Assembly (NCBI GenBank): GCA_964413715.1 | Contig: CAYPSN010000001.1 | Location: 135,573 to 199,572, forward strand | DNA from: an uncultured Candidatus Saccharibacteria bacterium | Lineage (GTDB): Bacteria > Patescibacteriota > Saccharimonadia > CAILAD01 > JADZBC01 | Reading direction: 5' to 3' | DNA: 64,000 nucleotides | In this document: positions 3,336 through 23,064 of the stretch, in pieces | Numbering within the stretch: position 1 is the stretch's first letter | Layout of the letters: each line of letters starts with the position of its first letter | Notes under the pieces: model-generated | What the model saw: only the letters and a program-made list of their open reading frames with translations | The model's database searches: none | Told to the model about the DNA's origin: nothing | Made by a program: the position numbers and the translations under genes

Positions 3336-3818
3336 ATGTTTGAGTGGTTTAAGGAATGGCGACGCAGTAGATTTCATCTCAAAACTCGACGCTTGTATGG
3401 TGGCCATCGTCACACTGCTGCGATGCTAGGCGTAGCCCAGGAACACCAGAAAGCTACCCAAGAGCTTCACGAGCACATCCATGCAGGGCAGGAAGCCAGA
3501 ATGGCTTCTATTGACACGTCGTTTAAAGACCCTCGCAATCAAGATCTCGCACGTCAGGCAGAAGTTGAATCAAAAGCTAAGCTCGAGCCGCTCATGGACC
3601 AAGACACTCAGGCTGCCGAGCAGTTGACGGCGGACAGGCAAAAAGATTATGACAAAGAGCTCAAAAAAGCCACCAAACACTACGCTCGACATCAGGATAA
3701 ATATTATGATGCAGCCGTCGAGGATATGCGCGAAGCAGGAATGGAGTTAAAGACAAATTCCCCTGAGCCCACCAAGGAATCAAAGCCGCCAAGAGACCCA
3801 GGCATTAAATTGGGCTAG
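3336..3818 (+). CDS. hypothetical charged/coiled-coil protein
   Basis: ATG 3336 with GGAGGG 7 nt upstream; extended -10 (TGcTATAAT at 3305..3313); low-GC codon usage, unlike the upstream GC-rich ORF in the same long track ORF. Confidence 0.6.
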   Translation: MFEWFKEWRRSRFHLKTRRLYGGHRHTAAMLGVAQEHQKATQELHEHIHAGQEARMASIDTSFKDPRNQDLARQAEVESKAKLEPLMDQDTQAAEQLTADRQKDYDKELKKATKHYARHQDKYYDAAVEDMREAGMELKTNSPEPTKESKPPRDPGIKLG

Positions 3819-19729: not shown

Positions 19730-20374
19730 CTAGCGATACCGATAGCGCCTCAGCCGTCGCCAGTAGGGCCAACGCCGCTTGAACTTGCAGCGCAAGCACT
19801 TGCAGACGTTCCAGTGCGTCCGACTGAACCGCTGGCAACGCCAACAGTGGCAGTGGCTGTGTTGCCGCCTTGGAGCGTCGCGCCAGTTCTTCCAGCGCGA
19901 AAACAGTGAGTTGTCATACCAGTACAGCCGCAGCTTGAAGCACTTATACAAGCACCAGCCCACTAGCTGCTCGAGACACAAACCAAGCAGCAAGGATCCG
20001 AAAGCGATCGCTGGCCAGGAATTAGCCAACGTAAAGCTGAACTTTTCACCTCCGCCCAAGTCGAGCATCCACAGAGTGTAGAGCCCACCGAGCGAGATGA
20101 GCAGACCAACTAGCCCCAACCAGCGCAGCGAACTACGCAAGCGTACTTCGCCAGCCTGATCATCGGCCTGGTCGTAGAACGGCGTGCGTTCATCCTTGCT
20201 TGAACCGAAGTGATCAGTATGAGTCTCTTCAACGATCAGGCCCCGCAGCCTATCCGCCTGCGGTGCTGGCTGGGCCATGAAGGCTTCGAGCGTGACCTCA
20301 AGCACAGGGTCCTCGGTGCCAAAAACCTCCTCGACAGCTGCGAAGAGGTCGTCTGGTACTTCATCGTCAGCCAC
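19730..20374 (-). CDS. membrane protein with acidic N-terminus, 2 TM helices and Cys/Arg/Trp-rich C-terminal tail (CxCxxC x2); 3' part uncertain
   Basis: GTG start with AAGGAGGT RBS; promoter TTGATT-17-TATAAA at 20417..20445 (minus); the C-terminal 75 aa also reads open in another frame. Confidence 0.4.
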   Translation of the reverse strand: MADDEVPDDLFAAVEEVFGTEDPVLEVTLEAFMAQPAPQADRLRGLIVEETHTDHFGSSKDERTPFYDQADDQAGEVRLRSSLRWLGLVGLLISLGGLYTLWMLDLGGGEKFSFTLANSWPAIAFGSLLLGLCLEQLVGWCLYKCFKLRLYWYDNSLFSRWKNWRDAPRRQHSHCHCWRCQRFSRTHWNVCKCLRCKFKRRWPYWRRLRRYRYR

Positions 20375-20445
20375 AGCCGACCTCCTTGATTCGATGTATA
20401 GGAACGAATAGATAGATTTATACGCTGATGAGCAGCATAAATCAA

Positions 20446-20850
20446 CCTAAACAAAAAGGGCCGGGGGTGGGGAGACGAATCCCCCCACCGCACGACCTCA
20501 ACTCGGAGGGATCGGGCCCGCAGACCATCCCAGCGCTCAGCACGCCCCCTTCGGCCGAGTAGCGTACGCCGCCACCGGTGCGATACGCCTCCCGGCGTAT
20601 CTTCCACAATCGTGGTGAGTCCCTGTCTTTCCACTGGGCAGTGGGTGAGTATTTTAGCTTTCCGCTGCGCCTCTACTGGCACTTTTACCTAGCTTATCCA
20701 GCACCCGAGCCCAGATTTGGCTGCTTCGGACAGGGGTGGGGGTCTTTAGGCTAGGAGAGAATCTGAGATTCTCTTAGTTTGGCCGCAAGCAGCCTAGATG
20801 ACGATGGTCACCATGTGGGCTATATTACGCCTTTTTTGAGTAAGTTCAAG
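20446..20850. ncRNA. candidate structured non-coding RNA or long structured UTR, class unknown
   Basis: about 400 nt GC-rich, no credible ORF/RBS; dense perfect hairpins (e.g. GATACGCC-tccc-GGCGTATC, GAGAGAATC-tga-GATTCTC); bounded by A5/T6 tracts. Confidence 0.3.
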
Positions 20851-20854
20851 CCTA

Positions 20855-21193
20855 TTATTTATTATCGGACTTTTCGTACTCGCGAATCTTGCGTCGTGCG
20901 ATTGTACTACGAAGCAGGTTGTTGAGGAATGCAGCAATAATACCAATACCGATGAGGAGATAGAAGATAGTAAAGAGTTTACCTAAGTCTGTCTTGGGCG
21001 TAATGTCGCCGTAGCCGACAGTGGTAAGAGTCACCACGCAAAAATAAAGGGAATCAAGCCAGCGTAAACCTTCTACGTAATGGTAGAACACCACGCCAAT
21101 TGCCAATACAGACATTACGCCGAGAGCGATGAGGCGAAAGTTACGCCGAATAGCGTGGGCTTCTTTGGGTGTTAAATCATCTTTGGGTTTCAT
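20855..21193 (-). CDS. minimal two-TM potassium channel (KcsA-like)
   Basis: TTVGYGD selectivity-filter signature between two TM helices. Confidence 0.8.
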
Positions 21194-21235
21194 AAACTTT
21201 ATTGTACCACGGGCCGTGATGGCCGAACGCTAGGG

Positions 21236-21263
21236 TTGCCATAACCTAAGCTTATGCTATAGT
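21236..21263 (+). promoter_or_regulatory. sigma70-like promoter TTGCCA-16-TATAGT driving the aroQ-tyrA leader
   Basis: read directly; ATG of leader peptide 7 nt downstream. Confidence 0.5.
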
Positions 21264-21269
21264 TATATC

Positions 21270-21335
21270 ATGTCAAAGCACGAACTTCGCGCATTTTCAT
21301 ACTATTACACCGACACCTTTCGTGGCGGCTATTAG
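21270..21335 (+). CDS. leader peptide MSKHELRAFSYYYTDTFRGGY (21 aa; 4 Tyr, 2 Phe) of a putative transcription attenuator
   Basis: leaderless ATG; Tyr-Tyr-Tyr run; 3' end (GTGGCGGCT) is complementary to the 5' arm of the downstream terminator (AGCCGCCAC). Confidence 0.5.
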   Translation: MSKHELRAFSYYYTDTFRGGY

Positions 21336-21367
21336 CATGTATTAAAGCTCATAAACAAACTATAAGT

Positions 21368-21390
21368 CAGCCGCCACACGGCGGTTTTTT
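21368..21390 (+). terminator. attenuator terminator AGCCGCC-ACAC-GGCGG + TTTTTT, 19 nt before aroQ ATG
   Basis: hairpin plus T6. Confidence 0.7.
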
Positions 21391-21409
21391 ATTTACAAGG
21401 AATTTAAAC

Positions 21410-21709
21410 ATGAACATACAAACAACTACATTAACAACTCTTCGGACTAAGCTTGATGCAATCGACGACCAGTTGATAAATATATTGGCAGAGCGGTTTG
21501 AACTCACGAGTCAGGTAGGCGAATACAAAGCCAAACACCATCTTCCTGCTATCGATTTGCAGCGAGAAGCAGAGCAGTTTACTCGAATTAGTGAACTTGC
21601 CCTAGCGAAAGGCCTCGACCAAGACTTCGCACGGTCCTTCTTGAGGCTGATCATTGACGAGGTCGTGCGTAATCACGAAGCAATCCGAAAAGATCAGAAC
21701 CATGTGTAA
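21410..21709 (+). CDS. aroQ: chorismate mutase (AroQ class)
   Basis: LRTKLDAIDDQLINILAERFELTSQVGEYK matches the AroQ fold consensus; 99 aa. Confidence 0.8.
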   Translation: MNIQTTTLTTLRTKLDAIDDQLINILAERFELTSQVGEYKAKHHLPAIDLQREAEQFTRISELALAKGLDQDFARSFLRLIIDEVVRNHEAIRKDQNHV

Positions 21710-22409
21710 ATCAATCACATCTATCGGAATAATCGGCAAAGGTGCATTCGGTACACTAGCATTTAGCCTGGTGCCCAGCGGTGTTGCTCGGCACACGTTT
21801 GGGCCAGAGGATAACCAAGAGCAATTCTTGAAAGTTGCGCACTGCGACGCCATTCTTCTTGCCATACCTCTAGGCTCCTACGAGGATGTATTAACAAGAC
21901 TCAAACCACATCTACACCCGGCAACCCTGCTGATTGATGTGTGCTCGGTTAAACTAGGGCCAGCGGAAATCATTGCCAGGCTGCTACCTGAACACAAGGA
22001 GGTCTTACTTACTCATCCACTATTTGGCCCCGAGACGTACTCACGAAGTGGCAGCAGTGCCACGCTCGTCGTTTGCACAGAGCTAACTGGGAAATCAAAG
22101 GATTTTATTAGGTTCTGCAGGGAACAGCTAAATATGAGCATAGTCGCCATGACACCCGAGAAGCATGATAAGGAAATGGCGTTCGTGCATGCCATGACGT
22201 TTTTTATAGCTCGTGGTCTGCGGGAAATCAATCTTGATCATCTCGTGCTTGAGACGCCGTCATTCCGGCATATCAAGCAACTAGCCCATCTGGATAGGAT
22301 ACATAGTCAGGAACTTTTTGAGACCATTGAGCTTGGCAACCCCTATGCAGCTATGGTCAGAGAACACCTCATCGCCAACCTGGAGCGAACCAACAATTCT
22401 CTAAAATAG
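21702..22409 (+). CDS. tyrA: prephenate dehydrogenase
   Basis: IGIIGKGAFG NAD-binding motif; start overlaps aroQ stop (ATGTGTAA). Confidence 0.8.
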   Translation: MCKSITSIGIIGKGAFGTLAFSLVPSGVARHTFGPEDNQEQFLKVAHCDAILLAIPLGSYEDVLTRLKPHLHPATLLIDVCSVKLGPAEIIARLLPEHKEVLLTHPLFGPETYSRSGSSATLVVCTELTGKSKDFIRFCREQLNMSIVAMTPEKHDKEMAFVHAMTFFIARGLREINLDHLVLETPSFRHIKQLAHLDRIHSQELFETIELGNPYAAMVREHLIANLERTNNSLK

Positions 22410-22482
22410 TAAATAACCTTAAGCGAAACGCCCACCTCCATGGGCGCTTCGTAAAGCGATGGAAGTGGGCGGGGAGCTGGCC

Positions 22483-22926
22483 CTAGTTGCGGACCACCTC
22501 GATGCACGGTTCCGTGACGGGGCCGACGACGAGCATCTGCGGCTCGCGGTAGACGCCGGTCGGGAGGTCGAGGAATGGGGCATCTGGCCCGTTGAGGAAC
22601 ATGTTGTCCTCGTCATCCCAGGATGGCTCATCTGCCAGCGCCATGGCGATCACCTCGTAGGTGTAGCCGGTCAGGATCTGGAAGTACTTCCGCACCGTCT
22701 CCTCGTCAGCTCGATCGTTGCCGTCAGCTTCGTTCATGAAGTCCGCCAGCTCGTAGCGATCTCGACAAGACTGGTTGTAGGTCACCCGCACGAAGTGCGT
22801 CATGCCGTTCTCGATGCAGAAGGACTGCACTCTCTCCGATGGAACGTCACCGATGACCAACAGCACGTGCTGGCTGGATCCCGAGTGGTCGGGAATGTCG
22901 ATGTATTCTCCTCCGGCTGCACCCAT
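22483..22926 (-). CDS. GC-rich hypothetical acidic protein (about 147 aa)
   Basis: start at MGAAGGEY (AAGGAGG 5 nt upstream) preferred over the longer track ORF; promoter TTGACA-17-TAATAT at 22998..23026 (minus). Confidence 0.5.
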   Translation of the reverse strand: MGAAGGEYIDIPDHSGSSQHVLLVIGDVPSERVQSFCIENGMTHFVRVTYNQSCRDRYELADFMNEADGNDRADEETVRKYFQILTGYTYEVIAMALADEPSWDDEDNMFLNGPDAPFLDLPTGVYREPQMLVVGPVTEPCIEVVRN

Positions 22927-23064
22927 GGCTGCCTCCTTGGTCCTGCTACTGGCTTCGGCCAGCACCTTACACACTGCGTGCAAGGAATTAGAGCATTATA
23001 TTAGTATAAATAACCTATTTTGTCAATGCTTACGGTTTTACAACAAGAGGAGTAAAATAGTGGT

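Follow-up and report, generated by a model that had tools for sequence, protein, structure and literature searches.

What regulates aroQ and tyrA in an uncultured Candidatus Saccharibacteria bacterium? The question is raised by a leader region of about 120 nucleotides (nt) in the window, that is, the full 64,000-nt stretch of contig CAYPSN010000001.1 (all positions are counted from its first letter), in which a 21-codon open reading frame (ORF) rich in tyrosine codons and an intrinsic terminator precede the genes for chorismate mutase (CM; aroQ) and prephenate dehydrogenase (tyrA). The evidence assembled here, which is computational throughout, makes it quite probable that this region is a ribosome-mediated leader-peptide transcription attenuator that reads the supply of charged tRNA-Tyr and thereby controls the two genes aroQ and tyrA as one operon. 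Related loci are referred to below by L numbers.

A leader with a tyrosine run and an exactly complementary terminator

Four of the 21 leader codons upstream of the CM and TyrA genes specify tyrosine, three of them consecutively and the fourth as codon 21; phenylalanine is encoded by codons 9 and 17. Close to the 3' end of the ORF, GTGGCGGCT (21322-21330) is the exact reverse complement of AGCCGCCAC (21369-21377), the 5' arm of a terminator that combines a hairpin with a 7-bp GC-rich stem (AGCCGCC-ACAC-GGCGGTT, 21369-21386) and a T6 run (21385-21390) ending 19 nt before the aroQ ATG (21410). The gene on the other side of the leader (20855-21193) encodes an ion-channel protein and is divergent, so that the terminator cannot belong to it. 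Upstream of the ORF, the promoter scan detected a promoter with a score of 10 out of 12 and a 16-nt spacer between the -35 and -10 elements; 6 nt (TATATC) lie between the -10 element and the leader ATG (21270), the A of which is the seventh base after -10. Downstream, the aroQ stop codon (21707-21709) and the tyrA ATG (21702) overlap by 8 nt (ATGTGTAA), and the overlap is equal in the relatives. The initial annotation of this DNA had already described the promoter, the leader ORF and the terminator, the complementarity between the ORF end and the terminator arm, and the overlap of the two genes, and all of these sequence statements proved accurate, positions included.

The leader ORF evolves as a coding sequence

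The window TyrA is 91% identical to a homologue on the Candidatus Saccharibacteria metagenome-assembled genome (MAG) contig CAZCAO010000001.1, and nearly all of the closer homologues come from Saccharibacteria or Patescibacteria MAGs. Four of the related loci, with TyrA identities to the window of 91% (L005), 72% (L001), 67% (L003) and 65% (L004) and CM identities of 70-88%, share the layout of the window, with a divergent ion-channel gene on one side of the leader and CM-tyrA on the other, and in each of them the 21-residue leader peptide is 100% identical to that of the window. The alignment of these five ORFs contains six variable columns (codons 6, 9, 12, 13, 16 and 17), every one of which is a synonymous third position. 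Differences at codon positions 1, 2 and 3 of the leader ORF amount to 0, 0 and 10-24%, respectively; the corresponding values for the adjacent CM gene are 10-26%, 5-16% and 22-56%, or about 20%, 6-13% and 40-56% if the closest pair, the window and L005, is set aside. The spacer between the leader stop codon and the terminator is 65-91% identical among the close relatives. A period-3 pattern of this kind characterizes sequences that are translated and kept by purifying selection, and the comparison accordingly argues that the leader ORF is translated. Both elements on which the attenuator proposed in the initial annotation depends, the micro-ORF and the antiterminator pairing, are conserved in these loci.

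Alternative pairings and the position of the ribosome

The minimum free energy structure of the whole window leader is the antiterminator, in which GUGGCGGCU (within segment 2) pairs with AGCCGCCAC (segment 3). On its own, this 2:3 duplex has an energy of -19.8 kcal/mol, compared with -7.6 kcal/mol for dinucleotide shuffles (z = -6.0; none of 300 shuffles reaches it), and it yields -17.8 kcal/mol when folded together with an extension, a longer 2:3 antiterminator formed by the pairing of the spacer element CAAACTATAAG with CUAUUAG of segment 2. The competing terminator hairpin (3:4) has -11.0 to -11.5 kcal/mol in the window. Across the leaders compared, the antiterminator reaches p <= 0.05 against shuffles in 15 of 23, and in 19 of 23 its strand starts 9-16 nt after the Tyr run (12 nt in the window), which is approximately one ribosome half-footprint.

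The RNAalifold consensus of four relatives corresponds to the terminated state and consists of the terminator and a further hairpin between leader nt 29-47 (CAUACUAUUACACCGACAC, segment 1) and nt 53-70 (GUGGCGGCUAUUAGCAUG, segment 2). This conserved 1:2 hairpin (nt 29-70) takes in all three consecutive Tyr codons. In the window it is weak, with -8.1 kcal/mol, and the free RNA at equilibrium prefers 2:3; in L001 and L003 it has -10.5 to -13.0 kcal/mol, the latter value being that of L003. With a 1:2 hairpin that pairs the Tyr codons with the 3' end of the ORF, the design would be the classical four-segment one. The pairing scheme of the initial annotation is supported with respect to the antiterminator and the terminator, but overlooked this hairpin.

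We then modelled the nascent RNA, folded up to the terminator loop and hence without segment 4, with a ribosome footprint masked from 15 nt before to 12 nt after the A site. In the window, the 5' arm of the terminator is sequestered to 100% with the A site at codons 1-14, to 83% at codon 15, and to only 13-24% from codon 16 onward, the stop codon included; when the A site holds any of the Tyr codons 11-13, the antiterminator is 100% formed. Masked folding therefore behaves as had been predicted, the antiterminator surviving to about codon 15 and collapsing from codon 16. Of 25 leaders taken from all the lineages, about 20 show a similar drop within a few codons of the end of their first aromatic run. 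In this model the regulatory codons are so placed that a stalled ribosome would permit the antiterminator and a ribosome at the stop codon would block it.

The same results bear on the suggestion, made in the initial annotation, that phenylalanine might be sensed as well. This is not supported: the single Phe codons 9 and 17 are not conserved in the L009 and L010 leaders (see below), and codon 17 lies in the zone where, in the masked folding, stalling favours termination.

Proposed mechanism

Direct observation extends to the sequence elements and how they are conserved, to the period-3 pattern and to the alternative pairings with their geometry; from these we infer the transcription start, leader translation, ribosome stalling and the response to tyrosine. 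The first transcribed base would be the A of the leader ATG (21270) or one next to it, and translation would be initiated at the 5' AUG by a 70S ribosome. When Tyr-tRNA is plentiful, the ribosome would reach the stop codon (21333) and cover segment 2 (21322-21339) while the polymerase makes segments 3 and 4; with segment 2 covered, the 3:4 hairpin and the U-run would form and transcription would end at about 21390. When Tyr-tRNA is scarce, the ribosome would stall on Tyr codons 11-13 (21300-21308), melting the 1:2 hairpin or preventing its formation, and its footprint would fall short of segment 2, leaving the latter to pair with the emerging segment 3 through a 9-bp core and the extension. 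The terminator would then be blocked and the polymerase would continue into aroQ-tyrA. The geometry is that of the classical trp and pheA attenuators, in which stalling frees segment 2 and completion of the ORF buries it. The features involved are listed in Table 1.

Table 1. Predicted features of the aroQ-tyrA leader region and the genes it precedes
Feature	Position	Strand	Basis
-35 element TTGCCA	21236..21241	+	Promoter scan; TTG invariant across 5 aligned relatives, flanks vary; begins 34 nt before ATG
Extended -10 element TGcTATAGT	21255..21263	+	TATAGT and preceding TG invariant in window, L005, L001, L003 and L004
Leader ORF MSKHELRAFSYYYTDTFRGGY*, 21 codons and stop	21270..21335	+	Peptide identical in 4 relatives; no Shine-Dalgarno-like sequence upstream
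Regulatory Tyr codons 11-13 (TAC TAT TAC)	21300..21308	+	Read from sequence; masked folding
Segment 1, CAUACUAUUACACCGACAC, 5' half of 1:2 hairpin, includes Tyr codons	21298..21316	+	RNAalifold consensus
Segment 2, GUGGCGGCUAUUAGCAUG: codons 18-21, stop and 4 nt further	21322..21339	+	Pairs with segment 1 or segment 3
Conserved spacer element CAAACTATAAG	21356..21366	+	Kept within variable spacer; paired in 2:3 fold
Intrinsic terminator: segment 3 AGCCGCC(AC), loop ACAC, segment 4 GGCGGUU, U6	21369..21390	+	Terminator scan; conserved in relatives
aroQ Shine-Dalgarno AAGGA	21397..21401	+	Read from sequence; ACAAGGA invariant in relatives
aroQ, monofunctional chorismate mutase, 99 aa	21410..21709	+	Pfam CM_2 E = 3e-21; NCBIfam best matches are chorismate mutase models
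tyrA, short prephenate/arogenate dehydrogenase, 235 aa	21702..22409	+	Pfam PDH_N E = 5e-15; NCBIfam prephenate dehydrogenase models

Recurrence of tyrosine leaders in distant lineages

In more distant Saccharibacteria, the TyrA proteins of which are 42-49% identical to that of the window, the leader peptide differs and the design is kept. The leaders in question are MLIFTANTTYYARYYNRGAYL (L009), MLIFVANSNYYARDQYCGAYL (L010), MVSISTARNYYAALV (L012) and (M)KKINV(N/S)FYYYP (L165, L166 and L167, with a GTG start six nt after TATAGT or TATACT). Each of these loci has its own terminator and a strand complementary to the terminator 5' arm, and between L165 and L166 the two strands change together (AGCGGU/ACCGCU in one, ACGCGG/CCGCGU in the other).

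An unbiased scan of both strands of 165 sequences (the window and 164 loci) was aimed at short ORFs with a Tyr doublet or at least three Tyr codons, followed by a terminator. Beyond Saccharibacteria, leaders before tyrA include MIKALINTRSYYAPLI in Brucella (formerly Ochrobactrum) species, MKNVCPLFVSFYYSPLT in Terasakiella pusilla DSM 6293, MIRTAASRYYRPRH in Acetobacteraceae and Rhodospirillales, MQRSSYYFYRRYFSFF... in Planctomycetota, and ...NNYYYPTS... and ...SAYYYPLL... in unclassified bacteria; the leader of Brucella (Ochrobactrum) grignonensis/B. pseudogrignonensis reads MIKALINTRSYY(A/T)PLI. The Tyr run is the only feature common to these otherwise unrelated peptides, and in the distant loci it is kept at the same spacing together with the terminator and the complementary strand. 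Short ORFs with a Tyr doublet and a terminator number 30 in the 64.6 kb that lie within 420 nt upstream of tyrA homologues versus 6 in the remaining 1,642 kb, or 0.465 versus 0.0037 per kb, an approximately 127-fold enrichment. Doublets of the 17 other residues seen upstream of tyrA are enriched 2-11-fold, as expected from hitch-hiking on shared terminators, and DD, MM and WW are absent there. Together with conservation and masked folding, this Tyr-specific enrichment supports the tyrosine-sensing attenuator architecture put forward in the initial annotation.

The enrichment also weighs on another explanation, namely, that the hairpin and U-run are a constitutive partial terminator or an RNA-stabilizing structure in a long 5' untranslated region, with an untranslated ORF and incidental Tyr codons. 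Such a reading could appeal to the promoter match, which alone is not statistically significant (3 found versus 1.9 expected in the region), and to the full-length equilibrium folds of L001 and L003, which keep the terminator whatever the position of the ribosome. Coincidence is hard to reconcile, however, with a 127-fold, Tyr-specific excess upstream of tyrA across phyla; the confinement of all six variable ORF sites to synonymous third positions would be unexpected for untranslated RNA, and the antiterminator complementarity goes far beyond that of shuffled sequences. We consider a constitutive structure very unlikely.

Alphaproteobacterial tyrA leaders take the form ...S/R-YY-x-P-L/R..., also in the cultured Brucella/Ochrobactrum species and in Terasakiella pusilla DSM 6293, and were observed in L064 (2824-2921), L073 (2824-2921), L055 (2838-2938), L107, L128, L132, L039, L060, L063, L101, L141 and L111. 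A single tyrA homologue in L048 is preceded by two Tyr-run leaders in tandem, MNLIKQQMNNYYYPTSIVQKLR (2453-2569) and MFPKNNVYYYGSLQEACFKVPK (2598-2713), both of which have a terminator of their own. Mixed aromatic runs precede tyrA in L087 (464-569; MSQLQTSNYFYFTSPRLAVCSVRS) and L017 (1720-1877; MICKSAAFFFYVDPLLAAAV), which suggests that some lineages may sense phenylalanine together with tyrosine.

Several relatives do not have a clear Tyr leader, namely, L006, L007 and L022 as well as L169 and L170, the TyrA proteins of which are 47% identical. The last two keep ATATAGTGGCGGCTCC upstream of CM (L169:1150-1220; L170:1-90), with the possible relic TAGTGGCGGCT; this stretch may be a remnant of the segment 2 and stop-codon region of a window-type leader.

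Weighing the proposed attenuator

Several observations count against the attenuator, or at least fit it imperfectly. Full-length equilibrium folding with ribosome masks gave no clean switch: wherever the ribosome is placed, the short GC-rich terminators of L001 and L003 prevail, and a ribosome on the Tyr codons of the window leaves the terminator with a probability of 50-82%, an intermediate value. The decision must therefore be kinetic, as in known attenuators; the masked folding described above used nascent RNA lacking segment 4 in place of the complete leader. In the window, moreover, the 1:2 hairpin (-8.1 kcal/mol) is weak beside 2:3 (-17.8 kcal/mol), so that untranslated transcripts may read through. 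Stalling at the fourth Tyr codon (codon 21) would favour termination; this codon may be kept for structural reasons, since UAU-UAG is base-paired in the 1:2 helix as well as in the 2:3 helix. Among the alignable Saccharibacteria, the pairing segments hardly vary and provide almost no classical covariation, the sole double change lying in the A/U extension of the terminator stem, and support for the structure comes instead from the non-alignable lineages. Under strict criteria, the element is present in only about 29 of 165 tyrA loci. Finally, the ten N-terminal residues MSKHELRAFS (21270-21299) are invariant among the close relatives, which is beyond what a pure sensor needs.

The last point deserves attention. 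In lineages with 65-72% TyrA identity, MSKHELRAFS is conserved as strictly as the Tyr run and the pairing segments; a predicted 5' hairpin is not maintained in these lineages, and the attenuator model leaves the conservation of these residues unexplained. Conceivably, the 21-residue product has a function of its own as a micro-protein, or the short terminated RNA acts in trans as a small RNA (sRNA), in which case sensing in cis would be only part of what the Tyr run and terminator do, or none of it. The entire peptide is 100% conserved where CM and TyrA are only 65-76% identical, with changes restricted to third positions, a constraint stronger than sensing alone requires. Nevertheless, at greater distance nothing of the peptide is conserved except the Tyr run and the segment-2 codons; other phyla have unrelated peptides and still preserve the relative placement of Tyr run, antiterminator and terminator; and the element always lies directly upstream of tyrA or CM-tyrA. 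This reading is in our view unlikely, and a role of this type could coexist with attenuation, as in the case of rnTrpL/peTrpL of Sinorhizobium.

A related idea comes from L045, a Saccharibacteria contig. The leader MKQLVSQFYFFWFTDTSAWRTVSMYQ (2682-2803) of this locus is built on the RNA scaffold of the window leader (85 bits with the R1 model), and a Trp-rich leader, MNQQLTRNNWYWLHHFRWRLATYW, is found at 3350-3472 (28 bits, E about 0.007, with the same model). Both follow a cluster of tyrA, pheA (CM-prephenate dehydratase-ACT) and a class IV aminotransferase gene, and each has its own terminator, followed by an ORF that has no Pfam match or is cut by the end of the locus. The shared scaffold reads ..ACC GAC ACC..CGUGGCG..AACCGCCACA..GGCGGUUUUU, with YYY before CM-tyrA in the window and FYFFWF before another gene in L045. 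The window leader may belong to a re-codable cassette that Saccharibacteria reuse, and the invariant 21-residue peptide could additionally act in trans, as a peptide or sRNA, or serve as an arrest peptide; we regard this combination as speculative and unlikely. Verification would make it, as far as we could find, the first cis-regulatory attenuation system shown in the candidate phyla radiation (CPR)/Patescibacteria; it would also demonstrate directly that transcription and translation are tightly coupled in these reduced epibionts and that they sense aromatic amino acids autonomously.

Promoter position and probable leaderless translation

Returning to the attenuator, the spacing between promoter and start codon indicates how its leader might be translated. 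The stretch of 6 nt between -10 and ATG varies in sequence among the relatives and is constant in length, and none of its versions resembles a Shine-Dalgarno sequence. The -10 element ends 6-7 nt before the start codon, with no Shine-Dalgarno sequence, in 9 of 11 Saccharibacteria leaders, and of 23 leaders examined in several phyla, the proteobacterial ones included, 21 have a -35 element of the form TTG(AC) whose first base lies 34-36 nt ahead of the start codon. Unlike the leader ORF, aroQ has a Shine-Dalgarno sequence (AAGGA). A leaderless transcript, with a predicted start at or beside the A of the ATG, is thus well supported for the window by these sequence comparisons. In the alphaproteobacterial Tyr-Tyr leaders, TTGAC lies 34-36 nt (mostly 35) before the ATG, and they too are apparently leaderless. 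The leaderless leader proposed in the initial annotation is supported; the annotation had also called this arrangement unusual, which does not hold given the precedents in Streptomyces and mycobacteria discussed below.

L022, a Saccharibacteria relative, has no leader ORF, and its chorismate mutase gene itself looks leaderless (TATACT, 6 nt, ATG; 2660-2700), which suggests that leaderless starts may be common in this group.

Relationship to known regulatory systems

Attenuators of the classical type have been reported for Trp, Phe, His, Leu, Thr and Ile/Val, with Cys as a more recent addition, and tyrosine biosynthesis is described as being under the control of proteins (TyrR) or T-boxes. Tyr-specific T-box leaders of Firmicutes likewise switch off genes for the synthesis or charging of tyrosine when it is abundant, and they also have a terminator/antiterminator pair; they bind uncharged tRNA directly and need neither translation nor a leader peptide. 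Could the window leader work in such a way, as an RNA that binds tRNA or a metabolite directly (a riboswitch or a Tyr T-box), and not through translation? Its combination of terminator and antiterminator ahead of an amino-acid gene is, after all, one through which T-boxes and many riboswitches also act. No Rfam 15 family matches the window leader even at E <= 10; at this threshold, positions 20000-23000 gave no T-box and no leader family (Phe, Trp, His, Leu, Thr and others). No family matches at gathering score in 13 representative related loci. Weak matches to snR40, Hammerhead_II, AgvB and mir-190_2 fall far below the gathering scores and were dismissed as chance. Since the leader is only about 120 nt long, has no conserved structured aptamer, and shows conservation that tracks codons and not helices, we find an RNA switch extremely improbable.

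Among leader-peptide attenuators, Escherichia coli pheL-pheA (Rfam Phe_leader; PMC11802643, PMC5343134) resembles the model proposed for the window in that a short ORF with a run of aromatic codons precedes a CM-containing gene of the Phe/Tyr branch, with alternative 1:2 (weak in the window), 2:3 and 3:4 helices, an intrinsic terminator and a readout of charged tRNA through ribosome stalling. However, pheL-pheA senses Phe and regulates a CM-prephenate dehydratase, whereas the window leader would sense Tyr and precedes CM and prephenate dehydrogenase; pheL translation is Shine-Dalgarno-led, unlike that of the window leader, and there is no sequence or covariance-model similarity between the two. 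The nearest described case to the Tyr leader is aroR, upstream of aroF in Corynebacterium glutamicum (Neshat et al. 2014, via PMC11802643), likewise a leader-peptide attenuator of aromatic biosynthesis. According to this account, the regulatory stretch of aroR is Phe-Tyr-Phe and the reported response is to Phe limitation, not to Tyr availability; in addition, aroR controls DAHP synthase in another phylum, whereas the window leader precedes CM-tyrA.

With respect to leaderless translation, trpL1, leuL and ilvL of Streptomyces lividans are transcribed leaderless (PMC8079986), and leaderless poly-Cys short ORFs of mycobacteria are Cys-responsive attenuators (bioRxiv 10.1101/834739). As predicted for the window, these transcripts open directly with the start codon of the regulatory ORF, carry no Shine-Dalgarno sequence and place the operon under the control of consecutive codons for the cognate amino acid. 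These actinobacterial leaders sense Trp, Leu, Ile/Val or Cys, none of them Tyr, and several are without a canonical intrinsic terminator, whereas the window has a clear hairpin and U-run. In gammaproteobacteria, tyrosine genes are controlled by TyrR or TrpR (PMC5343134); repression of enterobacterial aroF-tyrA by TyrR follows the logic proposed for the window, with tyrosine genes off when tyrosine is plentiful, but TyrR is a DNA-binding protein and involves no leader peptide.

We found no description of a Tyr-codon leader upstream of tyrA in the open-access full-text literature, which is not proof of novelty, and nothing relevant there on Saccharibacteria with leaderless transcripts or with chorismate mutase or prephenate dehydrogenase. 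Thus, the ribosome-stalling mechanism itself is textbook and not new; the Tyr version and its use in Saccharibacteria (TM7) are those for which we found no earlier description, and they represent a Tyr-specific, widespread addition to the classical ribosome-mediated attenuators. The window and some 30 further loci indicate that a Tyr-codon leader peptide controls a short, ACT-less tyrA in several phyla, and the prediction is directly testable because cultivable carriers exist among alphaproteobacteria, namely, Brucella (formerly Ochrobactrum) species and Terasakiella pusilla DSM 6293. It would further imply that some Saccharibacteria keep and finely regulate the terminal pathway to Phe and Tyr, and that they probably rely on leaderless translation coupled to transcription. 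The element is also the first of its kind that we could find for CPR bacteria. For annotation, a dedicated RNA or leader model would be warranted for the family, which also draws attention to a 21-codon gene missed by gene callers.

Other features of the window

A scan of the whole 64-kb window for further leader-type attenuators gave none that was convincing. Between tyrA and the ABC-transporter genes lies a 655-nt segment (22410-23064) with 56% GC, compared with 48% for CM-tyrA; its 181-aa ORF has no Pfam or NCBIfam match. In L002 and L004, which lack the segment, the gap measures 84 nt. A copy with 81% similarity is present in L005, together with partial repeats of it, and in L001 an IS1595 transposase gene occupies this place.

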